A stretch of 64,000 nucleotides of DNA from Gemmatimonadales bacterium (GTDB lineage Bacteria > Gemmatimonadota > Gemmatimonadetes > Gemmatimonadales > GWC2-71-9). A program made the translations under genes and the position numbers. Location: contig DASTUF010000112.1 in the NCBI GenBank assembly GCA_035759745.1, positions 905 to 64,904 on the forward strand, read 5' to 3'. Under the pieces are notes generated by a model. That model was not told the origin of the DNA and did not search any database. It saw only the letters and a list, made by a program, of their open reading frames with translations. Shown one piece after another: positions 11,717 through 51,391 of the stretch; position 1 is the first letter of the stretch, and the number at the start of each line of letters is the position of its first letter.

Positions 11717-11766
11717 AAAGATCCTCCTTCATGTCAAGGCTCGGACTGCGGAATAGAACTGGAACG

Positions 11767-12705: not shown

Positions 12706-12748
12706 GGTCAGCGGCTCGGCAGCTCCTGGCTCGTTGGCGTAGCGGGAA

Positions 12749-12945
12749 CTGCAACCGCAGATTGCGCAGATTCCAGCTGCTGATTGTTCGTTGCCGAATC
12801 TGGCGACTGATTCCCGGGCCGAGTTGGCCGCAGGTGTTCTTGTGGGTTCTCCCACGAAAACAACCGAACCTCAGGCCGCCCGTAAGAGGAGGTCAGCCGA
12901 CCTCAGGCAATCAGCAGTGCAAATCTGCGCAATCTGCGGTTGCAG
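12749..12945. repeat. Inverted-repeat element, CGCAGATT-word family (copy 1)
   Basis: The left arm (12749-12786) and right arm (12908-12945) are reverse complements with a perfect 24-nt core, CTGCAACCGCAGATTGCGCAGATT. The spacer is about 120 nt. It is related to 45028..45289. Confidence 0.75.
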
Positions 12946-12970
12946 TTGCAGTGCCAATCGCAGTCCAACC

Positions 12971-13879
12971 CTAGAACACCTGGACTTGAATCGGAATCTT
13001 CCCCGGATTGGCCCGGATCGCCGCCATCAGCGAATCCAGCTGCGCGGTGGCCCGCACCATCCCGAAGTAGAGCGTGCTGTCGGACATGAACTTGCCCAGC
13101 GAGCCCTCGCCCCGGTTCATGCGGGCGAGCATCTGCTGCAGCTCGTCGCCGGTAGCGGCGAGTTTGGTGGACATCGCCTGCAGGCTCTGGGTGAGTGAAT
13201 CGCTCCGGTCCAGCGCGGCCTTGAGCCCCGGGTTGCCCACGACGCCCTCGAGCTGAGTGGACAGCGTCCGGAACTCCGACAGCGTGCGGGTCAGCTCGGC
13301 CGACGGGCCGGTGTTGGGGTTGGCGTAGAGCGCCATGGTCTGCTGGGTGGCGGCCAGGGTCTGCTGCAGCGCCGTCATGGTCTTCTCCAGCGCCTCGGTC
13401 ATCTCGGGCGACACCATCGCCTGGAAGCCCGACAGGACCGAGTCGGCCCGCGCTGCCAGGGGACCTACCACGTCGGTAATCCCCAGTTGCGACGTGCCCA
13501 TGATGATCGCGTCGGGCGGCAGCGGCTCCGGATCGTCGCCCGGAACCAGCGCGATCGCGGCGTCGCCGGCGGCGAGACTGACCGTGAAAATCGAGGCCGC
13601 AGCATCCTTCTGCAGCGGGAGGTCGCGGGTGAGCGCCACTTCCACCAGCACCTCGCCCGGCTGCACGAAGTTGATCGACTGGACCTTGCCCATCTCCACG
13701 CCGGAGATGCGGACCGCCGATGCTTCCTTGAGGTTGCCGATGTTCTCGAACTGGATCCGCACCAGCTCGCCCGGGTTGAACGACTTGCCCCGGAGCCACA
13801 TCGTCGCGGCGATGAAGAGGACGATGCCCAGCAGCACCAGCCCGCCCACCGAGATTTCCTTCTTGTAGTGCAGGTCCAT
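12971..13879 (-). CDS. mlaD: MlaD / MCE-family protein
   Basis: N-terminal TM helix followed by an MCE domain (...VRIQFENIGNLKEASAVRISGVEMGKVQSINF...). Last gene of the mlaE-mlaF-mlaD arrangement. Confidence 0.8.
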   Translation of the reverse strand: MDLHYKKEISVGGLVLLGIVLFIAATMWLRGKSFNPGELVRIQFENIGNLKEASAVRISGVEMGKVQSINFVQPGEVLVEVALTRDLPLQKDAAASIFTVSLAAGDAAIALVPGDDPEPLPPDAIIMGTSQLGITDVVGPLAARADSVLSGFQAMVSPEMTEALEKTMTALQQTLAATQQTMALYANPNTGPSAELTRTLSEFRTLSTQLEGVVGNPGLKAALDRSDSLTQSLQAMSTKLAATGDELQQMLARMNRGEGSLGKFMSDSTLYFGMVRATAQLDSLMAAIRANPGKIPIQVQVF

Positions 13880-13881
13880 GG

Positions 13882-14637
13882 TCAGGCCTCGGGAAGCGTG
13901 GCGTCCTGGAAGTCGCGCTCGAGAAACTCCCGCACCTTGGGACTGTCCGAGGCGAGAAACTCCTGCTGCGTTCCCTGCATCACGATCTTCCCTTCGCTGA
14001 GCAGCGCCAGCCGGTCGGCCACCCGGAATGCGCCGCGGACGTCGTGGGTCACCATCACGCTGGTGACGCCCAGCTCCTTGTCGAGCTGCTTGACCAGGTC
14101 ATCGATGATGTCGGCGTTCACGGGATCGAGCCCGGACGTCGGTTCGTCATAGAGCAGGTAGTCGGGCTCGCCCACGATGGCGCGGGCGATGCCCACCCGC
14201 TTGCGCATGCCGCCCGACAGCTCGGCCGGGTACTTCTCGATCGTTTCCGGCGCGAGGTTCACCAGCCGGATACAGCGCGACACTGCTTCCCGGCTGTAGC
14301 CTATGTCGTCGAACTTCTCGGTGTCCGAGATGCCCAGCCGCACGTTCTCGAACACGTTCATCGAGTCGAAGAGCGCGCCGTTCTGGAACACGTAGCCAAT
14401 GCGGTAGCGCAGCTGCCGCAAGTCGTTCCGCTTGAGTTTCGGCACGTCGAGCCCGTCCACCACCACGTTGCCGCGGTCGGGCTTGATCAGCCCGATGATG
14501 TGCTTGAGCAGGACGCTCTTCCCGGTGCCCGACGGACCCAGCAGCGCCACGGTCTCGCCGTCCGCCACCGTGAAGTCCACCCCGTCCAGCACCACCTGCT
14601 CGCCGAACCGCTTGGCGACATCCCGAAGCTCGATCAC
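13882..14637 (-). CDS. mlaF: ABC transporter ATP-binding protein (MlaF-type)
   Basis: Walker A GPSGTGKS, signature LSGGMRKRV, Walker B LLYDEP. GTG 14637 overlaps the mlaE stop (GTGA). The longer ORF reaching 15165 overlaps mlaE. Confidence 0.85.
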   Translation of the reverse strand: MIELRDVAKRFGEQVVLDGVDFTVADGETVALLGPSGTGKSVLLKHIIGLIKPDRGNVVVDGLDVPKLKRNDLRQLRYRIGYVFQNGALFDSMNVFENVRLGISDTEKFDDIGYSREAVSRCIRLVNLAPETIEKYPAELSGGMRKRVGIARAIVGEPDYLLYDEPTSGLDPVNADIIDDLVKQLDKELGVTSVMVTHDVRGAFRVADRLALLSEGKIVMQGTQQEFLASDSPKVREFLERDFQDATLPEA

Positions 14638-15428
14638 ACCGTGAGCAGCAGCTGCGCCAGCAGGGTATCGAGCAGCAGGATCAGCACCGAGGCGCTCACC
14701 ACCGCACCGGTGGTGGAGCGGCCCACACCTTCGGCCCCCTGGCCGGTATTGAAGCCCATGTAGCAGGGGATGAAAGTGATGGCGCCAGCAAAGAAGAAGG
14801 CCTTGATGAGCGAATAGTAGGCATCGAACGGGCGATAGTATGCCTGCGCGCCGTAGGCAAAGTCGGCATTGGTGAGCGGCATGACCTGCCGCGCGGAGAA
14901 CCAGCCCATCGCCACGCCGATCACATCGGCGAAGATCACCAGGACCGGCACCATGATCAGCCCCGCCACCACCCGTGGCACCAGCAGATGCGATGCCGGC
15001 GACCGGCCCAGGCTCTCCAGCGCGTCTATCTGCTCGGTGACCCGCATGGTGCCTATTTCGGCGGCGTAACGCGCCCCGATCCGGCCGGCGAGGATGAGTC
15101 CCGTGAGCACCGGCCCCAGCTCGAGGACGATCGACTGGGTGACGAGGGTGCCCACCACGAACCACGGAAGGTTGCCCTGGAACTGGTAGCCGGCCTGGAG
15201 CGCCGTCACCGCCCCGGCGAACGCGCTCACCAGCAGCACGATGAACAGGCTGCCGATGCCGATGTTCCAGGCCTCATCGAACGCCCGGGGCACCCAGATG
15301 CGTGGTTCCTTGAGGCCCCGGAAGAACTCCACCACCAGCATGCTCAAGCGTCCCACGTGCGCCAGAGCGCCGAGGACAACCCGACCGATGGATCGGCGGA
15401 GATTGAAGCGCTGGGGGGGAGGAGGCAT
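14634..15428 (-). CDS. mlaE: ABC transporter permease (MlaE-type)
   Basis: Multi-TM protein with the MlaE-like ...EIGTMRVTEQIDALE... motif. Confidence 0.85.
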   Translation of the reverse strand: MPPPPQRFNLRRSIGRVVLGALAHVGRLSMLVVEFFRGLKEPRIWVPRAFDEAWNIGIGSLFIVLLVSAFAGAVTALQAGYQFQGNLPWFVVGTLVTQSIVLELGPVLTGLILAGRIGARYAAEIGTMRVTEQIDALESLGRSPASHLLVPRVVAGLIMVPVLVIFADVIGVAMGWFSARQVMPLTNADFAYGAQAYYRPFDAYYSLIKAFFFAGAITFIPCYMGFNTGQGAEGVGRSTTGAVVSASVLILLLDTLLAQLLLTV

Positions 15429-15449
15429 GCGGTAGTATCTTGCCCCACC

Positions 15450-16109
15450 ATGCCACGTAAGTCCAGCCTGCGCACGCTCTCACGCGGCCCCGAATTCCGC
15501 CGCCGCCTGCTGCGCTGGTTCCGGGCCCACGGCCGGGACCTGCCCTGGCGCCGGACCCGCGATCCCTACGCCATCCTGGTTTCCGAGTTCATGCTGCAGC
15601 AGACCCAGGTCTCACGGGTGCTGGAATACTGGCCCCGCTTCCTGGAGCGGTTCCCCGCCCTGCCGGCGCTGGCGTCGGCGCCGCCTGCCAGTGTCCGGGA
15701 GGCGTGGGATGGCCTGGGCTATTATCGCCGGGCTGCCAACCTGCAAAAGCTGGCACGTACGGTGGTGGACAACGGGGGCGTGCTGCCGGACGACCCGGCG
15801 CAGCTGCGTGAGCTGCCGGGCGTGGGACGCTACACTGCGGGCGCGGTGGCGAGTTTCGCCTACGAGCGGCGCACCGCCGCGGTGGACACCAATGTCGCGC
15901 GAGTGCTGCGACGCGCATTCCATCCCCGCCGCGCCAGCGAGGCGACGCTGTGGGCGACGGCCGAGGCACTGTTGCCGAGACGGGGGAGCGATGTGTGGAC
16001 CTTCAACCAGGCGATCATGGAGCTGGGAGCACTGGTGTGCACGGCAAGAGTGCGGCGATGCGACGTGTGTCCGGTGCGGCAAGCCTGTGCGACTGGACGA
16101 CCAAAGTGA
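15450..16109 (+). CDS. HhH-GPD DNA glycosylase, MutY-like, short form without the C-terminal NUDIX-like domain
   Basis: ...LPWRRTRDPYAILVSEFMLQQTQV...LPGVGRYTAGAVASFAY... plus the 4Fe-4S loop CTARVRRCDVCPVRQAC. 219 aa. Confidence 0.75.
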   Translation: MPRKSSLRTLSRGPEFRRRLLRWFRAHGRDLPWRRTRDPYAILVSEFMLQQTQVSRVLEYWPRFLERFPALPALASAPPASVREAWDGLGYYRRAANLQKLARTVVDNGGVLPDDPAQLRELPGVGRYTAGAVASFAYERRTAAVDTNVARVLRRAFHPRRASEATLWATAEALLPRRGSDVWTFNQAIMELGALVCTARVRRCDVCPVRQACATGRPK

Positions 16110-16181
16110 ATGGTGAAGGGTGATTGGGGACAAGATTCGACACCCCCTTTCACCAATCACTTTTCACCGTTCACCCTTCAG

Positions 16182-16640
16182 CTAGACTCCTGTGCGATAC
16201 GCCACCCCTGCAATCAGCGCGATCCACGCCAGCACCCCGGCGATGGATCCTACCAGGGCGAGGCGCCTGCGGAGCGCGTCGAACGTCGCCGGCTCGGCCT
16301 CGGGGTCGGTCCGGCCGATGCGGCCCGCTGCCGGGAGCGAGAAGATGAGGGTCAGCAAGGCGCCCAGCAGGCCCGCTCCCTGCATCGTCATCAGCCAGTG
16401 ACTCATCCCGGTCTCGAAGGCGTTCATCATCCGCAGCGTCAGCACCAGTCCCGACAGCACCACCATCACCGCCCCCGGGGCGATGACCTTGCGGACGATC
16501 GCGGCCTGGGCGCGTGCCACGGTTCGCTGGCTGCCCCGGTCATCGCGCCGCACGACTTTCGCCACGCACATGGCGGCGAGCCCGCCGCCGATCCAGAACG
16601 CCAGCCCCGCGAAATGCACGAACAGCCACAGCGCCTTCAT
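16182..16640 (-). CDS. Integral membrane protein (4 TM, DUF2269-like)
   Basis: Four hydrophobic helices. Overlaps the upstream gene's stop by 4 nt. Confidence 0.55.
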   Translation of the reverse strand: MKALWLFVHFAGLAFWIGGGLAAMCVAKVVRRDDRGSQRTVARAQAAIVRKVIAPGAVMVVLSGLVLTLRMMNAFETGMSHWLMTMQGAGLLGALLTLIFSLPAAGRIGRTDPEAEPATFDALRRRLALVGSIAGVLAWIALIAGVAYRTGV

Positions 16641-17068
16641 CGCGCCACCTCCGAGAGAATTGCGTCATCCACCGGCTGCCGGCCTTCGAAGCCGCCGTCC
16701 ACCGGATGCCAATGGGTGATCCGTTCCTCGCCCAGTCGCCAGCAGAGCAGGATCGGCTGGTCGTCGCGCAGCGAGGGGAAGTCCACGAGGCCCGCATCGA
16801 AGCCCTTGAACACGCAGCCGATCGACTCCAGTTCCTTCAGGTAGCCGTCGATTCGCGCGGCGCGGGCGTTGACATCGTCCAGCACCGCCTGCATTTCGGC
16901 GGTCTCGCCACTGTCAGCCCGCGCCGCCAGGGTGAGCGCCTCGTAGCGCGACACGCCCGCGCGCCAGTCGGGATACTCCTTCACCAGGTCCGCCACGATG
17001 CCGCGCACCAGCGGAAGCGTGCGTTCCGCATCTTCCAGAGTGAAGAGCCGTGAATTGCTCATCTCCAA
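16637..17068 (-). CDS. DUF2203 family protein
   Basis: LFTLEDAERTLPLVRGIV...GCVFKGFDAGLVDFPS...LLCWRLGE pattern. Confidence 0.65.
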   Translation of the reverse strand: MEMSNSRLFTLEDAERTLPLVRGIVADLVKEYPDWRAGVSRYEALTLAARADSGETAEMQAVLDDVNARAARIDGYLKELESIGCVFKGFDAGLVDFPSLRDDQPILLCWRLGEERITHWHPVDGGFEGRQPVDDAILSEVAR

Positions 17069-17075
17069 CGTCCCT

Positions 17076-17906
17076 TCAGGGCGCCGCCAGGGCAGCGCGC
17101 GTCGCCCGATAGCCTTCAGTCATGAGGGTTTCCGCCAGGTCAGGCCGGAAAGTCGTACCTCGCTTGATCGTTGGCCGCACGTGCAGCAGTGTCGGCCGAG
17201 CCGGATCGGCGCGCCACATCGCCAGCCGCAACGCGGTGTTGTCGGCCAGCAGCACGCTCATCGCCTCGTCATGGGCCCGTCGAAGAGGCAGCGACATCCC
17301 TGGGGCGATCCCCTCCTCGAAATTACCGCCAAGGTCCACGGCGACTACCCGGCTGATGCCTGGCAGTGCGGCGAGCTCGAGTGGCAACACACCCCTGAGT
17401 CCGCCATCCGCCAGCCGGCGGCCCGCCAGCACTACCGGGGGATAGTAGAACGAAAGCGCACAGGATGCGACCAGCGCATCTACCAGCGGCGCGTCCTCGC
17501 CACCCTCGCCGAAGACAACTCGTTCGCCGCTGTCGAGGTCCACCGCCGTGAACGCGAGTGGAGTGGACAGTTCGCCGAAGCGGCGGGCCGGGATCACCGC
17601 CTCGATCATCCGGCGAAGCGGCTCCGGCCGGAGCAGCGATGGCGCCGTGAGGCCGCGCAAAGCGACCAGTGGCCGCTGCTCCACGATGTCACTGGCCGAA
17701 GCTGCGAGCCGGCGCGCCAGCTCGTCGGAAGTCATTCCGGTGGCGAGCGCCGTCGCCACGACAGCTCCCATCGAAGTGCCGACGTACAGCGCCGGCTGGA
17801 TTCCCGCCTCGGCGATGGCGCGTGCCGCGCCCACGTGGGCCGCCGCCTTGGCGCCACCACCCGACAGCACCAGCGCCACGCCCCCGTTCGCGGCCGCGCT
17901 GCTCAT
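17076..17906 (-). CDS. Patatin-like phospholipase
   Basis: GGGAKAAAHVG (oxyanion), GTSMGA (GxSxG) and DGG (catalytic Asp). Start taken at MSSAAANGG. Confidence 0.8.
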   Translation of the reverse strand: MSSAAANGGVALVLSGGGAKAAAHVGAARAIAEAGIQPALYVGTSMGAVVATALATGMTSDELARRLAASASDIVEQRPLVALRGLTAPSLLRPEPLRRMIEAVIPARRFGELSTPLAFTAVDLDSGERVVFGEGGEDAPLVDALVASCALSFYYPPVVLAGRRLADGGLRGVLPLELAALPGISRVVAVDLGGNFEEGIAPGMSLPLRRAHDEAMSVLLADNTALRLAMWRADPARPTLLHVRPTIKRGTTFRPDLAETLMTEGYRATRAALAAP

Positions 17907-17992
17907 GCGTCCAGCCCTTGACAAAGGTCCGGTCGAATGCGGATTCTCATCACGGTGATCGTCCTGCCCCTCCCGCACCCGCGAGTTTACCC

Positions 17993-18412
17993 ATGAACGC
18001 AGCCACGATCGCGCGCTCCGACTTTGGACTCCTCGCACTCCGTGTCGTCACCGGCATCATCTTCGCCGCCCACGGCTGGCAGAAGTTCTTCCAGACGGGC
18101 CTGGACGGCGTGACCGGATTCTTCGCCAGCCTCGGCATCCCGATGGCCGGCATCGCCGCGCCGGCGGTCGCCACCCTGGAGCTTGCTGGCGGCGTTCTGC
18201 TGATCATTGGCCTGCTGACCCGGCCGCTCGGCGTCCTCTTCGCCCTCAACATGGCGGGCGCGATCTTCTTCGCCAAGACACGCGGCGAATACGGCTTCGG
18301 TGACGTCGAGCTCGAGCTCCTGCTGCTCGCTGCCTCGCTCTGCCTGGCCATGGCCGGCCCCGGAGCGTGGGCGGTGGACAAGAACATCGCTGCCCGGCGG
18401 CGACTGCCCTGA
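17993..18412 (+). CDS. DoxX family membrane protein
   Basis: ...LLALRVVTGIIFAAHGWQKF... is a typical DoxX pattern. ATG 17993. Confidence 0.75.
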   Translation: MNAATIARSDFGLLALRVVTGIIFAAHGWQKFFQTGLDGVTGFFASLGIPMAGIAAPAVATLELAGGVLLIIGLLTRPLGVLFALNMAGAIFFAKTRGEYGFGDVELELLLLAASLCLAMAGPGAWAVDKNIAARRRLP

Positions 18413-18434
18413 TGACCCGCAGGGCCGCGCCCGC

Positions 18435-18899
18435 TCACCTCGGGCGCGCGTGCTTGCGCTGCTCCTCCGCGCGCCGATAGCGCTCCCGCTCCTCATCCGT
18501 TTCAGCCACCAGCCGCGGCACTCGCCGCGGCTTTCCCTTCTCGTCCAGTGCGACAAACACCACGTGCGCGGTATGAGTGTGGCGCCGGGTGCCGGTGCTT
18601 ACCTGCTCGGCGTGCACCTCGACGGTGATGTCCATCGAGGAATTGCCCACGAAATCCACCATGGCGGTGCAGGTCACCAGTTCGCCCAGGTGGATCGGCT
18701 CACGGAAGTCCATCCGCTCGATGCTCGCCGTGACCGCGATGCCGCCCGCGTGCCGGATCGCCGCCACCGCCGCAGCCTGATCCACCAGCGCCAGCAGGTC
18801 GCCGCCGAACAGGTCACCCCGAACGTTCTGCATGTGCGGCATGACGAACGTGGTGAGTTCGCTGCGGGAGTGGGACATGGAGCGGGAGTCGGGGACCAT
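18435..18899 (-). CDS. Acyl-CoA thioesterase (hotdog fold)
   Basis: ...NVRGDLFGGDLLALVDQAAAVAA...HLGELV...VEVHAE... resembles YciA/BFIT-type thioesterases. Confidence 0.75.
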   Translation of the reverse strand: MVPDSRSMSHSRSELTTFVMPHMQNVRGDLFGGDLLALVDQAAAVAAIRHAGGIAVTASIERMDFREPIHLGELVTCTAMVDFVGNSSMDITVEVHAEQVSTGTRRHTHTAHVVFVALDEKGKPRRVPRLVAETDEERERYRRAEEQRKHARPR

Positions 18900-18961
18900 G
18901 TTAGTAGAGAGTAGGAAGTGGGAAGTGGGAAGTGGGAGGTAGGGGCGGACTGCGTCCGCCC

Positions 18962-20755
18962 TTAGTAGTCCACCGGCCTCAGATAATACTCCCCGATCGC
19001 CGTCTGGCTCACCATCGCGACGGTGGGAAGGCGGCGCTTCCAGTGGGTGGACTCGAGCCGCACGCGCACCAGCTCGATTTCCGCGTCACTGTAGCCCAGC
19101 AGGGCGATGTCGGCCGGGCGGTAACCCAGCAACAGCCAATGCAGGATGTGATCGGCCCGGGCGTAGGTGATGCCGAAGTCGCCCTCATCGGTCTGGCCCT
19201 GGACCAGGTCGGCGCTGGCGGGCTTGTCCACGATCACACTCGGCACGCCTACGTGGCGGGCCAGGTCCCAGACCTGGGACTTGAAGAGGTCGCCCAGCGG
19301 ATTCACCGGCGGCGAATCGTCGGCATGCCAGGTGAAATAGCCGAACAGGCGCTCGGTCTTGTTGCCGGTGCCGAGGGGCAGCGCGCCGAGTGCCGACGAG
19401 AGATCGAACAGCGTGATCATCCGGGTCCGCGCCATCACGTTGCCGAGCCGCCCGGGCGTGGTCGGTACGCCGATGTCCGCGGCAAGCGCATCTACCGCTC
19501 CCGAGATATCCACGGTGCGCACCTCGATGCCCAGCTCGTTCGCCACGAGTTCGGCGTGCTCCAGGCTGTCGCTGCTCGAGGCGTGGTACGGCATGCGCAC
19601 GCCAATGACGTTCTCCGGACCCAGCGCTTCCGCCGCAAGCCATGCCACCAGCGAACTGTCCACACCGCCTGACAGCCCCAGGATACCCTTCTTGAATCCC
19701 CGGCGCCGAACAACCTCGTCCTTGAGGAACTCGACCAGCCAGCGGCGAGTCAGCTCAGCCTCGATGGCGAGCGGATCTTCCGCATTGCTCGGCACCACCG
19801 GATGGCTGCTCGGCACCCGGGTGGCCCAGCGGCGTTCCCTGATACCGGACAGCGCGCCGTCACCGGCGCCGGTTCCGGTTCGGTCCTTTCCGTCCCACGC
19901 CTGCAGCAGGTGGGGAAGTCGCATCTCCAGGTCTGACAGCAGCGGCAGGTCGGCGCGGGCCCGCGCGATCTCGCCCAGGTGGAGGCTGCACGGCAGCACC
20001 GCGTCTTCGAAGACGGGGGCGCGTGCCAGGAGCTCTCCCCGGGGCCCCGCGACCAGCGACCCACCCGGAAATGCCTTGCCGCCCTCGAATCCCACCAGCT
20101 GGGCCACGGCCACGAATACACCGTGCTCGCCCGCGACATCTTGCGCGATCCGTTCCCACCGACTCAGGCTCGCGGGGCGTTCGTCGTCGGCATCGGGCCG
20201 GATGCCGCGGGCCGGACTGGCACTGGGGACCAGCAGCACTTCGGCGCCATCCAGCGCGGCGAACATAGGCATCACGCTGTGCCAGACGTCCTCGCAGATG
20301 AGCATGGCTGCGCGGCCCCAGCTGGTGTCGAACGCCTCGACCGAGCGGCCCGGCTCGACGAAGCGCTCCTCGTCGAACACCCCGTATGTGGGAAGAAAGA
20401 CCTTGCGATGGATGTGACGAATCCCGGCGTCGGAGCCGCCCAGCGAGGCGTAGATCGCGGAGTTGTAGAGGCGATTCTGGTGCAGCTCGAAAAAACCGAG
20501 CGATACATCCATAGGCGGCGCACCACTGGACTGGTGCACGGTGCGGAGGTCCTCGAAGAGCTGGTCGGCGGTGAGCGACAACTCGCGTACCCCGCCCTCG
20601 AGGAAGTAGCCGGTGAGCGCCGACTCGGGCGCCAGCAGGAGGTTGGGAGGCTCCTTCCACGCGGCGACCTCGCGGAAGACGTCGCCCAGGCGGGCGAGGT
20701 TGTCCCGATAGGCGCCCTTCCGGGGCCGTACCTGCGCGATGGCTAGGCGGAGCAT
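18962..20755 (-). CDS. nadE: Glutamine-dependent NAD+ synthetase (nitrilase domain + NAD synthetase domain)
   Basis: N-terminal CN-hydrolase domain (...MLICEDVWH...) and C-terminal LGLSGGVDSS PP-loop domain. Confidence 0.9.
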   Translation of the reverse strand: MLRLAIAQVRPRKGAYRDNLARLGDVFREVAAWKEPPNLLLAPESALTGYFLEGGVRELSLTADQLFEDLRTVHQSSGAPPMDVSLGFFELHQNRLYNSAIYASLGGSDAGIRHIHRKVFLPTYGVFDEERFVEPGRSVEAFDTSWGRAAMLICEDVWHSVMPMFAALDGAEVLLVPSASPARGIRPDADDERPASLSRWERIAQDVAGEHGVFVAVAQLVGFEGGKAFPGGSLVAGPRGELLARAPVFEDAVLPCSLHLGEIARARADLPLLSDLEMRLPHLLQAWDGKDRTGTGAGDGALSGIRERRWATRVPSSHPVVPSNAEDPLAIEAELTRRWLVEFLKDEVVRRRGFKKGILGLSGGVDSSLVAWLAAEALGPENVIGVRMPYHASSSDSLEHAELVANELGIEVRTVDISGAVDALAADIGVPTTPGRLGNVMARTRMITLFDLSSALGALPLGTGNKTERLFGYFTWHADDSPPVNPLGDLFKSQVWDLARHVGVPSVIVDKPASADLVQGQTDEGDFGITYARADHILHWLLLGYRPADIALLGYSDAEIELVRVRLESTHWKRRLPTVAMVSQTAIGEYYLRPVDY

Positions 20756-43293: not shown

Positions 43294-43881
43294 TTGACTT
43301 CCAACTTGTTAAGGAGCACGGCAGTGCGCGCTTCGCAGCCTGCGTTGCTCGCCGCTGGTCGTGTGATCGTCGAATCTCGCGATGCGATAGTAGCGGAGTG
43401 GACCGAACGTCTCGGTGACCGCTTGACCGCCGCACGCACGATACCGCGTTCCCTCGTCGAGCGGGAGTTCCGCCTGCTTCTCGACCTCATGGCCCATCAG
43501 GCGGGCCCGTTGAGGCGGGAAGTGAGGCCCATATGGCAACGTGCCTCTGAGCACCACGGCCGCACCGCATCCGCGCGGGGCCTGGCCGCGGGTGAGGTGG
43601 TGGAAGAACTGCTCCATCTCCGTGACATCATGACCCGGCACCTTGCGCCGGTGGTCGCCGCCATGCGGGCCCGCCAGGGCATGGCGATCCTGCTTCGCCT
43701 CAACCGGGTGCTCGATTATGGGGTCGCCGCGTCGGTGGTGGGCTACACCGACGCGCTGGTGGCGACGCTGATGGGCTCCAACGGCGTGCCCAGCGACGAC
43801 GGCAAGGGCGACGCAGAAAACGTCGAGCGCCAACTGGGCCTGCTCGAGGCGGAGCTCGAACAGCTCGTCGGAACGCGCTGA
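43294..43881 (+). CDS. Hypothetical helical protein (possibly an RsbR-N-like sensor domain)
   Basis: All-helical-looking 195-aa ORF ending in a coiled-coil-like segment. The family assignment is tentative. Confidence 0.45.
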   Translation: MTSNLLRSTAVRASQPALLAAGRVIVESRDAIVAEWTERLGDRLTAARTIPRSLVEREFRLLLDLMAHQAGPLRREVRPIWQRASEHHGRTASARGLAAGEVVEELLHLRDIMTRHLAPVVAAMRARQGMAILLRLNRVLDYGVAASVVGYTDALVATLMGSNGVPSDDGKGDAENVERQLGLLEAELEQLVGTR

Positions 43882-45027: not shown

Positions 45028-45289
45028 GGGATTCTGACTCGCAGATTACGCAGATTTGCATCCAGCGCGAAGACACCACGTCGAGTCCGGCGGCGATCTC
45101 GAATGTGTTTTTGTGGGCGCGGGACTATGGTTCCGCGACGCCTGCCAGCGCCCCCGCACGGGATCCAGAGGGGCGCCCACAGAAGCAATCGCACAAGAGC
45201 CTGCCCTGGGCGCGGGGTCTAGCCGGCCGGAGAACCCATCTGCGTCAATCGCAGTTCCCAAATCTGCGAAATCTGCGGTCCAGAATCCC
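45028..45289. repeat. Inverted-repeat element, CGCAGATT-word family (copy 2)
   Basis: The 30-nt arms are at 45028-45057 (GGGATTCTGACTCGCAGATTACGCAGATTT) and 45260-45289. The reverse complement of the right arm is GGGATTCTGGACCGCAGATTTCGCAGATTT, giving 26 of 30 matches. An extra partial arm lies at 45306-45325. Confidence 0.7.
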
Positions 45290-45399
45290 TTCAATCGCTG
45301 TATCCGAATCCCCGAAATCTGCGGTTTGCGCTGAACGGGTCATTGCTGCGCTGAAGCGGTTACCGCTTACCACCTCCGGCAACCCACCATGGGGCGACC

Positions 45400-48399
45400 A
45401 TGTCGTCGCCCCATCCGCTGGTACTCGCCGCAGTCCTCCGTTCCATCGAACGGCTGCCCGACCTCCCGCATCTTGCCGGGTGGCTCGGCGCCCAGCCGCT
45501 GTGGCAACCGATCACGCCGCCACCCCGAAGCTGCGATGCGGCGGCGCTGGTCGGACGGCTGGGAGACGTACTCTGGATCGGCGTGGAGTCCCCTGCCCGG
45601 CCCGAGCGTGCCGCGCTCCACGAGACCCGCCGGCTCGCTGCGGAGGGTCAGCAGGCAGTGGTGATCGGACTATCGCACGACCCGGCTCCGGGCGGCCTGC
45701 GACTGGCGCTGGCTGTCACCGGCGGCATCAGCCCGCTCAGTCTCGGGATCCACGACACCGATCGGGTCGCGCACGCCGCACTTGAGCGGCTTCGGCTCGC
45801 TGCCGGTGAACCAGCTTCCACCTGGCTTGCCCGCGCGACGGACGCACTGGCAGGACAGGGCGCCGGCGCTGCGTTCTTTCGCTGCTTTCGCGACTCGCTA
45901 GCGCGATTCGAGCAGCAGATCGTCACCAGTGCATGCGGCGAGCAGCGACGCACCCTGGCGCTGGTGCAACTCACCCGCCTGCTCTTTCTCTACTTCATCC
46001 AGAGCAAGGGATGGCTCGACCATCGGCCAGCGTACGTTCGTGAGGAGCTGGACCGGGCGCTGAACGCGGGCCGAGGCCTGCAACGCTGGGTGTTTGCGCC
46101 CCTGTTCTTCGGTGCGCTGGCCTGCCCGGCCCGCAAGCGCACTGGCAGGGCGCGCACCCTGGGCAACCTGCCGTTCCTCAACGGTGGCCTCTTCACTCCC
46201 CACCCGCTCGAGCGCAGCGCCGGATGCACCGTGCCCGACGTGGCCTGGCGCGAGGCAGTGGACCAGCTGTTCGAACGATTCCACTTCACCGTGGCCGAAG
46301 ACGATGGCGGCGGTCACGCCATCGCACCCGATATGCTGGGCCATGTGTTCGAGCGGGTGATGGCTGCCGATCGCCGCAAGGAAGCCGGCGCCTTCTATAC
46401 GCCCGCGACGCTGGTCCGCCAGACGCTGGACGAAGGGTTGACCGCAGTGGCCGTCGAGCGGCTCGGCATCTCCTGGAGCCACGCATCCGAGCGACTCATG
46501 GCCGGCGACCTGTCTATGTGCAGGTTGCTGGACCGGCTCCGCATTCTCGATCCCGCCTGCGGTTCGGGAGCATTCCTGCTGGGAGCGCTGGAGCGGATCA
46601 GCGAGCTGCGCGCCAACTCCGGGTTGCAGGCGCACCGCCTGCGACGCGAGGTGCTCGCCAGCCAGATCTTCGGTGTGGACCTCGATCCCATGGCCATCCG
46701 GCTCACCGAACTTCGGCTCTGGCTGGCAGTGGCCGCGGGTGATCAGCCGATCGCGCCCCGGAAGGTGGAACCGCTCCCCAACCTCGACGCCAGCGTGCGA
46801 CAGGGAGACGCGCTGCGCGAGCCAGCAGAACTCATCGCTGTGGATGCGGGAGCGAGCCGGGAACTCCGGACCCTCCGGCAGCGATACGCCCGAGCCACCG
46901 GTGGCTCCAAGCAGAGCCTGGTGCGCCAGCTGCGGCGTGCCGAGTTGCTCGCGGCCGAACGCGCGCTCGATGGCGGCATTGCCCGGCTGGAGCAGCGTAT
47001 CGCCGACTTGCTGCGAGTTGCGCGCGCGCCAAACCTCTTCGGCCAGCCAACCCGGCTCGCGCGCGGGCAGCGCAACATGCTCGGGGTCCTCCGCCGCGAC
47101 CTGCGGGAACTTCGGCGGGCTCGGCGCGAGATGAAGCGTGAGGGTCGCCTGCCGTGGTTCAGTGCCGCGGCGCAGTTCGCCGATGTCATGGCGAGCGGTG
47201 GCTTCGACCTGGTCGTGGGCAACCCGCCCTGGGTGCGGGCCGAGGCGCTGGCGCCGGGTGAGCGAGAGCGGTTGGCGCGGCGGTTCCGGTGGTGGCGCAC
47301 ATCCGGTCGAGGCTACCGGCATCAACCAGACCTCGCCGTGGCCTTCACCGAGCGGGCATGCGAGCTGGTAGCGCCCGGTGGAACCATCGCGCTGCTGGTG
47401 CCGGAGAAGCTCGCCACCGCGGGCTACGCCTCGGTGATGCGCGGTGGGCTCACATCGAGCTGCACGCTGCGGACTGCGGCGGCGATAGCACCGGACGCTG
47501 CCGCGGAGTTCGGTGCCACCGTGTACCCAATGATGCTGGTGGCCTCGAAACGGGTCGCCGAGCCGGAGTCGCAAGTGCGAGTGGCGCTCGATGCTGGTGC
47601 CTCCTCCGTTGAGCAACGATCACTCGGCGCCGGCCCATGGGTGCTTGGTCGAAGCGGCGTCGGCGAGCTGGTGTCGAGCCTGGGCGCATCTCATCCGCGC
47701 CTGGGCGAAACGCTCCGTCCGTGCCTGGGTGTGAAGACCGGCGCAGACCAGGTATTCCTCGATCCCGACGATGTCGAGGCCGAACTGCTTCGCCCGGCAG
47801 TGCGCGGGCGTGACGTGCGTCCCTTCCGGGTGTCGAGCCGGCACAAGCTGCTGTGGACCCATGATGCCCACGGCGAGCCGCTGGCAACTCTCCCGCCCCG
47901 GGCCCGGGCGTGGATCGCGCAACATGTCGAGCAGCTGATGGCGCGCAGCGACGCTCGGCCCGGGGTGCCGTGGACCCTGTTCCGGGTGCGGGGCGCGCTT
48001 TCGCGCTGGCGCGTTACATGGGCCGACGTCTCCCGGCGGCTACACGCTGCGGCGCTCGTGGGTGATGCTGCGGGTCACATCCCCCTCAATACCTGCTACC
48101 TCGTGTCCGTAGCCAGCGCGACCGAGGCGAATGCCCTGGCAGCCTGGCTCAACGCGCCGCCCATCAGGGCGCTGGCGGCTGCGGCCGCGCCACCGGCCTC
48201 AGGCGGGTATCGCCGCCACACTGCAAGCGTGGTGGAGCAGCTGCCGCTGCCCAGTGATGTGCTGGGGAGTGCGGAGTTGCAGGCGCTGGCCGAGGCCGCC
48301 GCAAGTACAGGCGAGGACAGTGAGGCGCTGGCCAAGGCTGCCGGCGACCTGCTGGGGTTGGATCGCCGTGAGTCTCGCCAGCTGGCATCGCTGGGGTGA
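45400..48399 (+). CDS. Gamma-class N6-adenine DNA methyltransferase, Eco57I/PglX-like, with C-terminal TRD and an uncharacterised N-terminal region
   Basis: LFLYFIQSKGWL, FLNGGLF, FHFTVAED...MLGHVFE, AFYTP, motif I ILDPACGSGAFL and motif IV VVGNPPWV. The TRD-like segment is CLGVKTGADQVFL. No PD-(D/E)xK motif was seen. Confidence 0.85.
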   Translation: MSSPHPLVLAAVLRSIERLPDLPHLAGWLGAQPLWQPITPPPRSCDAAALVGRLGDVLWIGVESPARPERAALHETRRLAAEGQQAVVIGLSHDPAPGGLRLALAVTGGISPLSLGIHDTDRVAHAALERLRLAAGEPASTWLARATDALAGQGAGAAFFRCFRDSLARFEQQIVTSACGEQRRTLALVQLTRLLFLYFIQSKGWLDHRPAYVREELDRALNAGRGLQRWVFAPLFFGALACPARKRTGRARTLGNLPFLNGGLFTPHPLERSAGCTVPDVAWREAVDQLFERFHFTVAEDDGGGHAIAPDMLGHVFERVMAADRRKEAGAFYTPATLVRQTLDEGLTAVAVERLGISWSHASERLMAGDLSMCRLLDRLRILDPACGSGAFLLGALERISELRANSGLQAHRLRREVLASQIFGVDLDPMAIRLTELRLWLAVAAGDQPIAPRKVEPLPNLDASVRQGDALREPAELIAVDAGASRELRTLRQRYARATGGSKQSLVRQLRRAELLAAERALDGGIARLEQRIADLLRVARAPNLFGQPTRLARGQRNMLGVLRRDLRELRRARREMKREGRLPWFSAAAQFADVMASGGFDLVVGNPPWVRAEALAPGERERLARRFRWWRTSGRGYRHQPDLAVAFTERACELVAPGGTIALLVPEKLATAGYASVMRGGLTSSCTLRTAAAIAPDAAAEFGATVYPMMLVASKRVAEPESQVRVALDAGASSVEQRSLGAGPWVLGRSGVGELVSSLGASHPRLGETLRPCLGVKTGADQVFLDPDDVEAELLRPAVRGRDVRPFRVSSRHKLLWTHDAHGEPLATLPPRARAWIAQHVEQLMARSDARPGVPWTLFRVRGALSRWRVTWADVSRRLHAAALVGDAAGHIPLNTCYLVSVASATEANALAAWLNAPPIRALAAAAAPPASGGYRRHTASVVEQLPLPSDVLGSAELQALAEAAASTGEDSEALAKAAGDLLGLDRRESRQLASLG

Positions 48400-48403
48400 G
48401 CCG

Positions 48404-50599
48404 GTGCCTCGCCTGGTCGCGGAAGCACTCGCCGAGGTGGCGGCGCTCCCGGAAAGCGCGATTGGGAGGACTCCTGCCTCGGCGCATGATGTGGTCGGTG
48501 CGATGGCAACGGCTGCCCGCCTGCCCGAGTCACCCGCCGAGCTTCCCACCTGGCTCCGCCCCGATCAGGTCCGCTGCTGCCGTCGTGCACTCGCCGCGAT
48601 GGAGCGGCATGGCGGTGCGCTGGTCGCGGAGCCACCGGGCACCGGCAAGACCTTCATCGCGCTGGGTGCAGCGCTGGCCGGCTTCGGTGGGCGCGCGAGC
48701 TGCCTGGTTCCTGCCGCCGTCGCGACTCAGTGGGAGCGAACCGCCTCACGACTTGGGGTGCGCATCCGGCTTGCGACCCACGAAGGCGCCAGCCGCGGTT
48801 CACTTCCACCGCCAGACGGGCTCACCGTCATCGATGAAAGTCATCGATTCCGCAACCAGTCCACTCGCCGCTATGACCACGTCGCGCGCTGGTTGCTGGG
48901 ACGCCCCGCGCTGTTGCTCACAGCCACGCCCGTGGTCAATCGGCTTGCGGATATCGTGCACCAGCTGCAACTGGTGCTTTCGGACGACGCGCTTGCGCCA
49001 TGGGGCGTACCCTCGCTGGCAGGGTTGACGAAGGCGGAGTCGCTGCCGGAGGCCATCTGCCGGGTGGTGATGCGCTCACCCGGACACCAGTCACTCCCCC
49101 GGCGCGAGCAATGGCAGGAGCGGCCTTTGGCGGCTCGATCGATGCACCCGCTGCTTCGTGGCATCGACCAGCTCGCACTCGATGCCGATGCGCCGGTGGC
49201 GGGGCTGGTGCGCGGGGTGCTGGTCCGTGCCGCCGCCTCCAGTCCCGCGGCCTTGCTGGCAGCGTTGATCCGCTACCGTGCGCTGCTGGAGTCGGCCCGA
49301 GACGCAGGCGAAGCGGGACGAGCCCTGTCGCGCGCTGCGCTCCGGCGGTGGGCCGGCGTCGACGGGCAACTGGTGATGTGGCCCCTGATTCCGGACGAAG
49401 GCGAGATGGTGCGATTGCCGCTCGGTGACCTTGCCCGGTTGGATCGACTGATCGAAGCGGCGAGGCGCGCCGGTACGCTCCGCGACCCCCGTGCCGAGCG
49501 CCTGAGCGCACTGCTCCAGGACGGTCGCAGAACGCTGGTGTTCACCACTGCCCGAGCGACCGTACACTATGTCGCCCGCCGACTGGGCCGTCATCGGGTG
49601 GCCTGGTGCACCGGCGATGACGCCGGCATCGGGATGGAGCGCTGCGATCGCGACACCGTCCTCGGACTCTTCCGGCCGGGCCCGGCGCACGAGCGCGCAC
49701 CCCGGGTGCTGGTCACCAGCGACGTCTCCTCGGAGGGACTCGACCTCCACGGCGCCGAGCGGGTGGTGCACTATGACCTGCCCTGGACGCCGTCCAGGCT
49801 GGAACAGCGGGAAGGCCGGGCCATCCGGCACGGCGCGGCACATGAAGTGGCGGAAGTGGTGCGCTTCCTTCCGCCCAGGGTGGTGGAGCGGCGGCTGGGC
49901 CAGCAACGGATACTCCATCACAAGGCGTCACTGCCGGTCCGAGCCCAGTTGCTCAACCAGGACCTGCTGGCGTGGCCGGAGCTGCTGGAGGAGTTGGCAG
50001 GACAGGATGATCCCGGGCCCCTCTTCGCTGTTGTGCGTGACGACGGCCCGCGCGGCCTGCTCGCGGCATTGCAGCTCGTCGGTCACGATGGCACCGGCTC
50101 GCATCCGGCTGGGGCACGGCTGACCTGGCTTCCGGCCATCGGTGCGATTCGGGAAGACGTGCAGGCGCTCGCGGCCGCGTTGCGACGGGCACGCGACGCC
50201 AATGGTGTTCTGGTTCCGGCAGACAGCGAGCTGCGCCGAAGTGAGCAGGCGATCCTGGCGGGTGCACTGGCGAAGGCCAGCGTTGATTCGCTCGGCGTCG
50301 CGCCCGGTGCCGACCGCCGCGCGTCGCGTGCGCTGATTCGCAGGCTGGGGCTGCTGGCGGGCGAGGCCGCCCGTCGACGCGACATTGCCGGCTTTGAGCG
50401 CTGGTCCCGCGCCTCGCAATGGCTGGCCCGCAACCGCACCGCCGGAAGCGAGCGGGTGGCGGCGCAGCTGGTCGGTGCCTCCGCTCCCGAACTCCAGCAG
50501 CTGGCGTCGGCCCTGCCGCCCCCGCCCCCGTTGCTCACCTGGGAACTTCGGGCCACGCACCTCATCGCCTTCCGTTCGGCAACCGACTCGCTACGTTGA
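48404..50599 (+). CDS. SNF2/SF2-family helicase-like ATPase
   Basis: Motif I EPPGTGKT, motif II VIDESHRF, motif III LTATPVVN, and motifs V/VI TSDVSSEGLDL...LEQREGRAIRHG. The start is GTG 48404 (4 nt after the methyltransferase stop) or GTG 48368. The ORF-track start at 48131 lies inside the methyltransferase gene. Confidence 0.8.
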   Translation: MPRLVAEALAEVAALPESAIGRTPASAHDVVGAMATAARLPESPAELPTWLRPDQVRCCRRALAAMERHGGALVAEPPGTGKTFIALGAALAGFGGRASCLVPAAVATQWERTASRLGVRIRLATHEGASRGSLPPPDGLTVIDESHRFRNQSTRRYDHVARWLLGRPALLLTATPVVNRLADIVHQLQLVLSDDALAPWGVPSLAGLTKAESLPEAICRVVMRSPGHQSLPRREQWQERPLAARSMHPLLRGIDQLALDADAPVAGLVRGVLVRAAASSPAALLAALIRYRALLESARDAGEAGRALSRAALRRWAGVDGQLVMWPLIPDEGEMVRLPLGDLARLDRLIEAARRAGTLRDPRAERLSALLQDGRRTLVFTTARATVHYVARRLGRHRVAWCTGDDAGIGMERCDRDTVLGLFRPGPAHERAPRVLVTSDVSSEGLDLHGAERVVHYDLPWTPSRLEQREGRAIRHGAAHEVAEVVRFLPPRVVERRLGQQRILHHKASLPVRAQLLNQDLLAWPELLEELAGQDDPGPLFAVVRDDGPRGLLAALQLVGHDGTGSHPAGARLTWLPAIGAIREDVQALAAALRRARDANGVLVPADSELRRSEQAILAGALAKASVDSLGVAPGADRRASRALIRRLGLLAGEAARRRDIAGFERWSRASQWLARNRTAGSERVAAQLVGASAPELQQLASALPPPPPLLTWELRATHLIAFRSATDSLR

Positions 50600-50603
50600 G
50601 CGC

Positions 50604-51251
50604 ATGACGCGCCTCACTACCGTGCTGTTCGACCTCGACGGCACACTGATCGACTCGATTCGCCTCATCCTCGACAGCTATCACCACACCCTCTCGTCCC
50701 ACGGCATTGCTGCCCGGAGCGACGATGAGTGGCTGCGCGGCATCGGTACGCCGCTGCGGGTGCAGTTCGCCGAGTGGGCCGAATCGCCCGGCATCGAAGC
50801 CATGATCGCCACCTACCGCGACTACAACCTGGCCCATCACGACACCCGGGTCCTGCCCTACCCCGGCATCGTGGACATGGTCCGTGCGGTGCGGCACGCA
50901 GGCCTCCTGACCGGGCTGGTCACGAGCAAGAACCGGACGGGCGCGATGCGCGGCCTCCGGCTTTGCGGCCTGGACCAGGAGATGAATGTGCTGGTGGGTG
51001 CGGACGACGTGGAACAACCCAAGCCGCATCCCGAGCCCGTTCTGCGGGCCCTGAGCGAATTGGGCCAGCCGCCGGAAGCGGCGATGTATGTCGGCGACAG
51101 CATCCACGATATGGAGGCTGGCCGGGCGGCGGGGGTGCTTACGGCAGCGGTGCTCTGGGGACCATTTGGGCGTGATCACCTGGAGGGCAGTCAGCCCGAC
51201 TACTGGCTGGAGCGCCCGGACCAGTTGGAGCCACTCGTTCGCTTGCTTTGA
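50604..51251 (+). CDS. HAD-superfamily phosphatase (PpaX/Gph-like)
   Basis: VLFDLDGTLIDS, LVTSK and YVGDSIHDMEAGRAAG motifs. ATG lies 4 nt after the helicase stop. Confidence 0.85.
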   Translation: MTRLTTVLFDLDGTLIDSIRLILDSYHHTLSSHGIAARSDDEWLRGIGTPLRVQFAEWAESPGIEAMIATYRDYNLAHHDTRVLPYPGIVDMVRAVRHAGLLTGLVTSKNRTGAMRGLRLCGLDQEMNVLVGADDVEQPKPHPEPVLRALSELGQPPEAAMYVGDSIHDMEAGRAAGVLTAAVLWGPFGRDHLEGSQPDYWLERPDQLEPLVRLL

Positions 51252-51257
51252 ACGTTT

Positions 51258-51322
51258 CGCGCCATCGGGGCGGTCCCCGCAGGCAGGTCACGTATCTGCC
51301 GGAGGGGACCGCCCCGATGGCG
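51258..51322. repeat. Palindromic hairpin element, copy B (perfect 20-bp stem)
   Basis: GCGCCATCGGGGCGGTCCCC - 25-nt loop GCAGGCAGGTCACGTATCTGCCGGA - GGGGACCGCCCCGATGGCGC. It lies immediately after the HAD gene stop. Confidence 0.8.
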
Positions 51323-51391
51323 CGCCACTCTTGCCCCGTCTCGTGTGTGCGGTATTTTCCGGCGCCTCCCCTCCGTTACTTGGACGTGACA

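Follow-up and report, generated by a model that had tools for sequence, protein, structure and literature searches.

A nuclease-free methyltransferase and Swi2/Snf2 ATPase gene pair fixed in the Gemmatimonadales chromosome: a candidate motor-assisted DNA methylation module

In a stretch of 64,000 nucleotides from a Gemmatimonadales bacterium of the GWC2-71-9 lineage (assembly GCA_035759745.1, contig DASTUF010000112.1, positions 905 to 64,904; hereafter, the window), two adjacent genes encode a gamma-class N6-adenine DNA methyltransferase (MT) and a Swi2/Snf2 ATPase (HEL). We propose that they constitute a nuclease-free, vertically fixed module in which a motor assists DNA methylation, a reading to which we assign a probability of about 0.45. 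The pair is vertically inherited, co-evolving and under purifying selection at one site of the Gemmatimonadales core chromosome. Judging from the family alignments, both enzymes keep intact catalytic motifs, and neither appears to have a nuclease domain. The two genes form a translationally coupled module: the TGA stop codon of MT (48397-48399) is separated by 4 nt from the GTG start codon of HEL at 48404. A first-pass annotation, made from the letters of the window, had described a 999-residue methyltransferase followed four nucleotides downstream by an SNF2-like ATPase of roughly 730 residues, and had proposed either a defence or an epigenetic role. Both roles are still candidates, but they are not equally open: the order-wide fixation of the pair, which is not visible from a single window, changes the balance between them and shifts weight to a host function.

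The architecture of MT is that of PglX/BrxX and MmeI-type enzymes. Its Pfam matches are Eco57I (7e-19), N6_Mtase (9e-12) and MmeI_Mtase (3e-9), and its PADLOC matches are all partial, with REase_MTase_IIG as the best (6e-29), followed by DrmMI and PglX. AlphaFold2 models of MT and HEL were built on family alignments and compared with the PDB using Foldseek, with 50 matches listed for each. For the MT model, which has a mean predicted local distance difference test score (pLDDT) of 78, the best matches are the PglX/BrxX structures 8q56, 8c45 and 9ewz (E about 1e-16 to 6e-14, ~990 aligned columns), and CamA, M.BseCI, MmeI (5hr4), BpuSI and DrdV are found further down; MmeI 5hr4 aligns over 960 columns with a TMq of 0.46. 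MT is of the gamma class in that motif I lies before NPPW and the recognition domain is C-terminal. The motifs quoted in the first-pass annotation are all found, with LFLYFIQSKGWL at residues 195-206, FLNGGLF at 259-265, FHFTVAED at 294-301 and NPPW in the catalytic domain. The helical bundle is the best-conserved part of the protein (mean pairwise identity 0.66), and a family profile aligns residues 179-429 to MmeI 5hr4, while the long insertion that splits the catalytic domain is fast-evolving, with a mean identity of 0.42. The recognition domain (mean identity 0.53) had been described as TaqI-C-like; the Pfam TaqI_C model finds no match in MT, but residues 731-973 do match residues 302-564 of M.BseCI, its recognition domain, with an E-value of 8e-19 for the whole chain. 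About 30 of its residues are invariant, including K779-T780-G781, R802-G803-R804-D805, W858, R862, W874, D876, C899 and N918.

HEL has 731 residues and the complete set of invariant motifs and the fold of a Snf2 motor. GTGKT, DESH, TATP (residues 173-176) and QREGRAIRHG are all present, as the first-pass annotation had stated. Pfam detects Helicase_C (8e-17), SNF2-rel_dom (9e-6) and ResIII (3e-5), and the PADLOC matches, again all partial, are to DrmD, BrxHI, DpdE and HmaA, the last at 5e-14 and over RecA2 only. The predicted structure (mean pLDDT 80) makes HEL a RapA-like Snf2 ATPase: RapA gives the best Foldseek matches (E 1e-16 to 1e-13), followed by Rad54, SWR1, ISWI and CSB. With hhalign, RecA2 alone of the HEL family is aligned to E. 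coli RapA, at 97% probability. RapA binds RNA polymerase via its N-terminal Tudor domains. About 75 residues of HEL stand ahead of the Walker A motif, and since only about 50 of them, mostly helical, are N-terminal of the motor core, HEL has no room for a Tudor domain. At the other end, the modelled topology suggests that the alpha+beta region after the motor resembles the C-terminal domain described for RapA and BrxHII by Rakesh and Krishnan (PMC12839542).

That neither protein has a nuclease was a claim of the first-pass annotation, and it agrees with the profile searches, the structural models and the conservation seen in the family. No nuclease family was found in MT or HEL by Pfam, PADLOC or NCBIfam, and no nuclease is among the 50 Foldseek matches listed for MT or the 50 listed for HEL. 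Alignments of 27 and 15 family members leave only L13, L22, L29, G30, W59 and G83 invariant within MT residues 1-140; in the C-terminal region of HEL, the only invariant residues are L504, K507, L510, W575, R647, A655, A680, G681 and L689. The family alignments contain no conserved catalytic set of D, E, H and K residues in MT 1-140 or HEL 505-731. A profile of the MT N-domain searched against PDB sequences gave only noise (E > 1), and hhalign found nothing in common between it and the N-terminus of the methyltransferase of a Calothrix plasmid that is discussed below.

One could still think of a conventional restriction enzyme (Type IIG, Type III or Type ISP) whose nuclease, in the MT N-domain or the HEL C-terminal region, has diverged until it became cryptic. 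For instance, MT residues 1-135 lie where Type IIG enzymes have their nuclease. They are modelled as a-b-b-b-a-b-b-b (pLDDT ~90 at residues 11-90 and 68-83 beyond), which includes a compatible a-b-b-b-a-b order. In addition, D56...E64-S-P66 in the window's protein resembles, with the lysine missing, the catalytic motif of MmeI, D70-X9-E80-X-K82. However, neither D56 nor E64 is conserved in the family, HEL 505-731 has no invariant acidic or histidine residue, and searches of Pfam, PADLOC, NCBIfam and the PDB gave no nuclease family. The other two enzyme types do not fit either: in Type III systems, Mod is beta-class with a central recognition domain and Res carries a C-terminal PD-(D/E)xK nuclease, and Type ISP enzymes are single-chain. 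At the level of sequence profiles, family alignments and whole-chain structure comparison, a hidden nuclease in MT 1-140 was rejected, as this region has neither conserved catalytic residues nor a PDB or Pfam match, and we consider the whole idea of a cryptic nuclease very improbable. The MT N-domain would be at most the relic of a dead nuclease, and as it lacks conserved PD-(D/E)xK residues, no cleavage is expected.

The distribution of the pair was studied by scanning one genome per GTDB species, which yielded at least 543 stretches with a relative; the loci compared here are the best 80. Each protein has hundreds of full-length homologues, with 41-51% identity beyond the clade of the window, and the few named ones all belong to metagenome-assembled genomes (MAGs) of Gemmatimonadales or Gemmatimonadota; many homologues of MT agree with homologues of HEL in the length of their longest contig. 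The 80 loci come from the same kind of MAG, except for one labelled Bacillota. In these loci, MT and HEL co-occur wherever they are found, in line with the co-occurrence and synteny check that the first-pass annotation had proposed, and they are part of a conserved block whose order is identical in every locus with enough flank: NUDIX, abhydrolase, (TonB receptor, CbiX), LD-carboxypeptidase, an RsbRD_N-like gene, GT2, MT, HEL, HAD, PhoU_div, Pit and GT4. The exceptional contig (JBLMWC010000081.1, "Bacillota bacterium MAG294") shows the Gemmatimonadales synteny in full, and its genes are 47-76% identical to those of the window; it was probably binned or labelled wrongly. Among the 72 loci that were measured, most have between -14 and +16 nt from the MT stop to the nearest in-frame HEL start; the others range from -89 to +82 nt, according to which start codon is taken. 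In one locus (L074:12701-13300), MT and HEL are in a single frame. The tail of this MT looks frameshifted and the MAG is probably a long-read one, and thus the fusion is probably an indel error and was not used as evidence.

The two genes have also diverged together. The pairwise-identity matrices of MT and HEL correlate with r = 0.92, which is more than either reaches with any flanking gene; the values are 0.76-0.89 between MT and the flanking genes and 0.67-0.77 between one flanking gene and another, which we consider to be the same range. In seven close genome pairs, the ratio of nonsynonymous to synonymous substitution rates (dN/dS) is 0.07-0.23 for MT and 0.12-0.25 for HEL, and the dS of the pair is of the same order as that of the flanks, being somewhat higher in the more divergent genome pairs. 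An independent view of occupancy comes from 80 metagenome contigs that were retrieved via the RsbRD_N-like gene, without reference to MT. All 16 of those that reach at least 1.5 kb past GT2 contain MT, and each of the 21 contigs lacking it stops no more than 1.45 kb from GT2, which is inside the known range of the spacer. The composition of the pair (G+C 0.70, compared with about 0.67 for the window) does not differ from that of the host, as had been stated previously, and its G+C at third codon positions, 0.77-0.79, is near the 0.78-0.84 of most flanking genes. In agreement with the first-pass annotation, the pair is not a recent acquisition.

Defence systems are usually patchy in distribution and associated with islands. 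Fixed synteny, co-divergence and purifying selection would be unusual for a mobile defence cassette, and it is this combination that moves the balance in the direction of a fixed role in the host. MT has the constant locus, the vertical inheritance, the purifying selection and the lack of a linked nuclease that characterise lineage-conserved methyltransferases. We also looked for an origin of the window's copy in mobile elements, an idea that was dropped because the plasmid and viral matches are weak and the window has no integrase or transposase.

Several considerations weigh against the methylation module that we favour. The closest structural relatives of the two proteins, PglX/BrxX for MT and, for HEL, BrxHII, which is RapA-like according to PMC12839542, are defence proteins. 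A nuclease or another effector may lie elsewhere in the genome, beyond the 64-kb window. Moreover, few genes of the block evolve as fast as the pair, whose mean identity is 0.51-0.53 compared with 0.60-0.77 for the flanks, and its peripheral and terminal domains change fastest, a pattern that also fits an arms race. A rival explanation is a chromosomally fixed defence of the BREX kind, in which MT would mark the host while MT and the motor would sense unmethylated sites on DNA that enters the cell. They would stop the replication of this DNA with no nuclease of their own or, in a variant of the same idea, would hand it over to a nuclease encoded elsewhere or to the host's RecBCD or AddAB. Taken together, we regard these two versions as a possible, though tentative, explanation. 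The partial PADLOC matches of HEL to DrmD, BrxHI, DpdE and HmaA point in this direction, as do the RapA-like architecture that PMC12839542 gives to both the BrxHII and the BR/Hma helicases and the plasmid cousins described below, in which a methyltransferase of this sort is paired with a PLD-Snf2 effector. On the other hand, a constant syntenic position in at least 80 species, the occupancy of 16 in 16 and the co-divergence with housekeeping neighbours would be unusual for such a defence. There is, in addition, no PglZ, BrxC, DUF499 ATPase or nuclease in the window or the variable spacers of the 80 loci, and the recognition domain can be aligned family-wide and keeps its invariant residues, which argues against frequent switching of specificity.

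BREX itself has several features in common with the pair. MT shares with the PglX/BrxX of Type 1 BREX the order of helical bundle, gamma-class methyltransferase domain and recognition domain, and in Type 3 BREX, PglXI stands directly ahead of BrxHII in the same way that MT stands ahead of HEL. In contrast to BREX, PglZ, BrxC, BrxA and BrxB are absent here, and the equivalog cutoffs of the NCBIfam PglX models are far away (61.8 bits for BREX_2_MTaseX, with a cutoff of 400, and 32-53 bits for the others, with cutoffs of 500-900). MT has an additional N-terminal alpha/beta domain that PglX lacks, HEL has no Tudor domain and, apparently, no inactive restriction-endonuclease-like domain of the BrxHII kind, and, unlike an island-borne system, the pair has been fixed by vertical descent.

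The BR, Hma and MANTIS systems likewise combine a methyltransferase with a Swi2/Snf2 helicase. The BrxHII and BR (Hma/Gao_RL) helicases have been described as RapA-like Swi2/Snf2 proteins, and the BR helicases have an active nuclease domain of the restriction-endonuclease or HKD kind, added C-terminally in Type 1 and, as HKD, N-terminally in Type 2 (Rakesh & Krishnan, PMC12839542). According to the same authors, a DUF499 AAA+ ATPase is required in BR systems, and their methyltransferase is of the DUF1156 type (PMC12839542). HEL differs from these helicases in carrying no nuclease, there is no match to DUF499 or DUF1156 in the window, and MT is of the Eco57I/PglX type. A relevant observation comes from MANTIS/Gao_RL, in which the methyltransferase hemimethylates asymmetric sites only when it is loaded by the ATPase (bioRxiv 10.64898/2026.09.23.753747); this is a precedent for the ATP-dependent loading of a methyltransferase.

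Plasmids from Calothrix, Nostoc and Allomeiothermus provide distant relatives of both proteins. In these, an Eco57I/Type IIG-like methyltransferase is followed by small open reading frames (ORFs) and then by a PLDc_2+Snf2 helicase of 1094-1125 residues. The matches of MT to plasmids are partial and do not exceed 31% identity, the plasmid methyltransferases sharing 25-31% identity with it over MT residues ~160-900. Those of HEL are short matches over conserved motifs only; it aligns to the motor of the plasmid helicase alone (residue 61 onto residue 246; 23% identity, E 4e-25). Viral contigs gave only partial helicase matches, with about 30% identity apart from one motif of 53 residues. The plasmid helicases have an N-terminal PLDc_2 nuclease, whereas the Gemmatimonadales HEL starts just before the motor, and the plasmid cassettes lie amid transposases, integrases and XRE regulators and have small ORFs between the genes, whereas the Gemmatimonadales junction is tight. 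Their order, methyltransferase and then Snf2 helicase, is that of MT and HEL. They correspond to the PADLOC candidate "C3a139 HKD+Snf2", and the PLD-Snf2 effector resembles the Type-2 BR helicase of PMC12839542. The annotation of the 26-kb plasmid stretch that was viewed lists no DUF499 ATPase gene, though the neighbouring genes were not scanned. These cassettes may be a separate two-component restriction-like system.

Type IIG and IIL enzymes (MmeI, BpuSI, Eco57I and DrdV) have the same layout as MT, with an N-terminal alpha/beta domain, a helical spacer, an NPPW domain and a TaqI_C-type recognition domain. However, no PD-(D/E)xK residues are conserved in the MT N-domain, and MT is obligately paired with an Snf2 ATPase, whereas Type IIG enzymes work without such a partner. 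Class 1 DISARM and Type ISP enzymes also combine an N6-adenine methyltransferase with an SF2/Snf2 motor, and the first-pass annotation had accordingly seen in the pair the DrmMI and DrmD half of DISARM, or else a split Type ISP enzyme. This did not hold, as the nearest relatives are PglX/BrxX and MmeI for MT and RapA for HEL. HEL scores 86 bits with the DrmD model NF038317, for which the cutoff is 610, and 61 bits with NF038318, for which it is 950. DrmA (a helicase), DrmB (DUF1998) and DrmC (PLD) were found neither in the window nor in the 80 syntenic loci, and the 50 matches that Foldseek listed per model include none of DrmMI, DrmD, LlaGI and LlaBIII. The last two are Type ISP enzymes, in which one polypeptide contains both an Mrr nuclease and a motor resembling that of Type I systems; the pair consists of two separate ORFs, arranged the other way round, and has no Mrr domain. 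The broader statement that the pair is not a recognised complete system stands, with all NCBIfam models of named systems far below their cutoffs and only partial matches in PADLOC.

A different question is whether the two genes work together at all, or whether a regulatory orphan methyltransferase, like Dam, CcrM or CamA, merely shares an operon with a RapA-like ATPase that serves RNA polymerase or DNA repair. RapA is, after all, the top structural match of HEL, and among the strong structural matches of MT is a conserved orphan enzyme, CamA, which covers its catalytic and recognition domains. Like MT, the orphan enzymes Dam, CcrM and CamA are lineage-wide, vertically inherited and without a linked nuclease; unlike MT, they have no coupled Snf2 ATPase, are much smaller and lack the N-terminal and helical domains. 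In addition, the operon includes an unrelated PpaX-like HAD gene, and thus operon membership alone is no proof of a shared function. Nevertheless, HEL is without the N-terminal Tudor domains of RapA and scores only 34 bits with the NCBIfam RapA model (cutoff 576). The MT-HEL junction is also tight in most of the loci measured while the HEL-HAD spacing is free, the identities of MT and HEL correlate with each other better than those of either do with any flank, and the distant plasmid relatives keep the order of methyltransferase and then helicase. All of this makes two independent genes an improbable explanation.

If the pair is, as we favour, a nuclease-free module for methylation, MT and HEL would act as a complex in which HEL, as a RapA-like translocase of double-stranded DNA, spends ATP to move along or clear the DNA and to load or activate MT. 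MT would then methylate one adenine in a short, probably asymmetric, site, and the resulting N6-methyladenine (m6A) mark would serve a permanent purpose of the host, such as self-marking or epigenetic control, rather than a restriction of the cut-and-destroy kind. Such a module would most likely descend from a mobile system of the restriction type, with a methyltransferase and a nuclease-Snf2 fusion, and the nuclease would have been lost or never have been there. A more specific and rather unlikely version is that a domesticated BREX-like or Type IIG-like module has become an epigenetic writer of the core genome, in which a Swi2/Snf2 remodeler is required for adenine methylation, with one conserved motif and vertical descent throughout the order. 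In the literature searched, we found no paper linking Gemmatimonadetes with a pair of this type. Three m6A motifs have been reported in Gemmatirosa kalamazoonensis, RGATCY, ATGCAC and CCAGN7TCA (PMC3974934). An attempt to link them to the MT family was abandoned, as an orthologue in that genome could not be established, and no motif was assigned.

The genes around the pair offer no obvious additional component. A Pfam scan of the 32 longest ORFs of the window found only housekeeping families outside MT and HEL, among them formate dehydrogenase, FdhD, NAD synthase, a TonB-dependent receptor, CbiX, LD-carboxypeptidase, glycosyltransferases, PhoU_div, Pit, amidohydrolase and OTCase. Using Pfam, PADLOC and NCBIfam, we found no partners of BREX, DISARM, Type I or Type III systems in the 64 kb, as the first-pass annotation had noted, and the window contains no genes of mobile elements (integrase or transposase) and no other defence genes. 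The HAD gene, whose ATG lies 4 nt past the HEL stop, is probably co-transcribed with HEL but is probably not a functional partner of the pair. It was set aside as such because it is PpaX-like and its distance to HEL is variable elsewhere, from -91 to +722 nt and 6 kb in one locus (L061), and for the same reasons it more probably groups with PhoU_div (true start ATG 51393) and Pit downstream. The RsbRD_N-like gene, which had no NCBIfam match, is upstream of MT wherever the flank suffices, and directly so if GT2 is missing.

The spacers on both sides of the pair vary among genomes. The one between GT2 and MT measures 0.1-7.6 kb and that between HAD and PhoU_div about 3.5 kb in other genomes, and they carry hybrid histidine kinases, a secreted protein of ~250 residues, SnoaL, MarC, an M28 peptidase and a Ser/Thr kinase. 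A third partner was sought in these spacers in related loci and rejected, as they hold only unrelated cargo, with no PglZ, BrxC, DUF499 ATPase or other nuclease or ATPase partner. The secreted protein is encoded divergently from MT in several Gemmatimonadales, of which four loci were examined, and has an apparent signal peptide and the invariant motifs FFNLGGGQT and PYLN; the window does not contain it, and Pfam gave no match. Many other lineages have a HAD-PhoU_div spacer of comparable size, and the PAS-GAF kinase of 1127 residues that occupies it in one locus is likewise absent from the window.

The non-coding sequence upstream of MT contains three elements. The GT2-MT spacer is 374 nt long in the window and 125 nt in the closest relative, L001. 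The inverted-repeat element that the first-pass annotation had placed at the upstream boundary is real, with terminal repeats of about 30 nt (GGGATTCTG..CGCAGATT), but as it has a single copy in the window, is absent from L001 and has no Rfam match, we did not count it with MT and HEL; its appearance is that of an unrelated insertion resembling a MITE (miniature inverted-repeat transposable element). The second element, a direct repeat of GCGCTGAA followed by GCGGTTACCGC, is the sole part of the 374-nt spacer that is kept in L001 besides a largely kept hairpin at the start codon, and it is possibly a transcriptional control site. The hairpin, formed by ATGGGGCGAC and GTCGCCCCAT, retains 8 of its 10 bp in L001 and may control the translation of MT. 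A promoter scan found no sigma-70 consensus, and a terminator scan found a single chance-level terminator inside MT. As for the downstream boundary, the perfect palindrome that had been reported is not present at 50599; the only strong palindrome is instead an imperfect hairpin after the HAD gene, which is likely the end of the transcription unit and which the terminator scan skipped because it has no T-run.

Table 1. Features of the pair, its surroundings and its relatives. Coordinates are positions in the window unless a locus (L number) or plasmid is named; residue numbers refer to MT or HEL.
Feature	Coordinates	Strand	Remarks
MT, gamma-class N6-adenine DNA methyltransferase	45400..48399	+	999 residues; PglX/BrxX and MmeI-type architecture
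MT N-terminal alpha/beta domain, residues 1-135	45400..45804	+	Position at which Type IIG enzymes carry a nuclease
MT helical bundle, residues 155-330	45862..46389	+	MmeI/PglX-type helical domain; LFLYF..KGWL, FLNGGLF, FERFHFT
S-adenosylmethionine-binding motif I DPACGSG, residues 384-390	46549..46569	+	D384, P385, A386, G388, S389 and G390 invariant in 27 family members
MT long two-helix insertion, residues 483-581	46846..47142	+	Splits catalytic domain; helices 483-498, 502-542, 555-581
Catalytic motif IV NPPW, residues 608-611	47221..47232	+	Invariant in family
Target-recognition domain, TaqI_C/M.BseCI type, residues ~700-960	47497..48279	+	Profile match to M.BseCI
HEL, Swi2/Snf2 ATPase	48404..50599	+	731 residues; GTG start; no nuclease domain recognised
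Walker A GTGKT, residues 79-83	48638..48652	+	G79, G81, K82 and T83 invariant in 26 homologues
Motif II DESH, residues 144-147	48833..48844	+	D144, E145 and H147 invariant in 26 homologues
Motif VI QREGRAIRHG, residues 468-477	49805..49834	+	Q468, R469, G471, R472, R475 and G477 invariant
HEL C-terminal alpha+beta region, residues 505-731	49916..50596	+	Three-stranded sheet 540-577, long helices, closing strand 712-725
PpaX-like HAD pyrophosphatase	50604..51251	+	ATG 50604; NCBIfam PpaX 201 bits, cutoff 218
RsbRD_N-like gene	43294-43881		195 residues; best-conserved member of the syntenic block, dN/dS 0.00-0.10
Inverted-repeat element, ~260 bp	arms 45028-45047 / 45270-45289	+ / -	In GT2-MT spacer; 0.19 chance matches expected
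Candidate promoter/operator	45327..45366	+	Direct repeat (two copies) and following motif, upstream of MT
Perfect 10-bp hairpin	45389..45414	+	MT start ATG 45400 inside loop
Downstream hairpin	51258..51324	+	29-nt arms, 93% complementary, 9-nt loop; between HAD stop and PhoU_div start
Secreted protein family, ~250 residues	L013:9181-9939; L017:9036-9833; L016:9218-9934; L024:9236-9985	-	Between GT2 and MT
PAS-GAF hybrid histidine kinase/response regulator, 1127 residues	L013:16019-19399	-	Between HAD and PhoU_div
Calothrix plasmid AP018291.1 cassette (L081)	11347-18991		XRE regulator, Type IIG-like methyltransferase, 2-3 small ORFs, PLD-Snf2 helicase
Allomeiothermus pMESIL02 cassette (L082)	11524-19065		Same order as L081

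The modules of a methyltransferase and an Snf2 protein that are known so far, namely BREX, DISARM and Hma/MANTIS, are mobile and patchy and include additional ATPases, phosphatases or nucleases. Here, the same two blocks occur without a nuclease and are apparently fixed in the core chromosome of an order of soil bacteria that is mostly uncultured. If the motor is needed for methylation, the pair would represent a minimal, two-protein form of ATP-dependent DNA methylation in bacteria and also a clear case of a defence-type module that has been kept permanently as a host function. Were it indeed a domesticated epigenetic writer, it would be a bacterial counterpart of the remodeler-assisted methylation of eukaryotes, in which DDM1 or LSH acts with DNA methyltransferases. 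If, instead, the pair serves defence, it would be a minimal nuclease-free system kept throughout the order, and it would be useful for understanding how BREX-like systems stop phages without cutting their DNA. Either reading predicts an m6A motif, which may perhaps be shared across the order.

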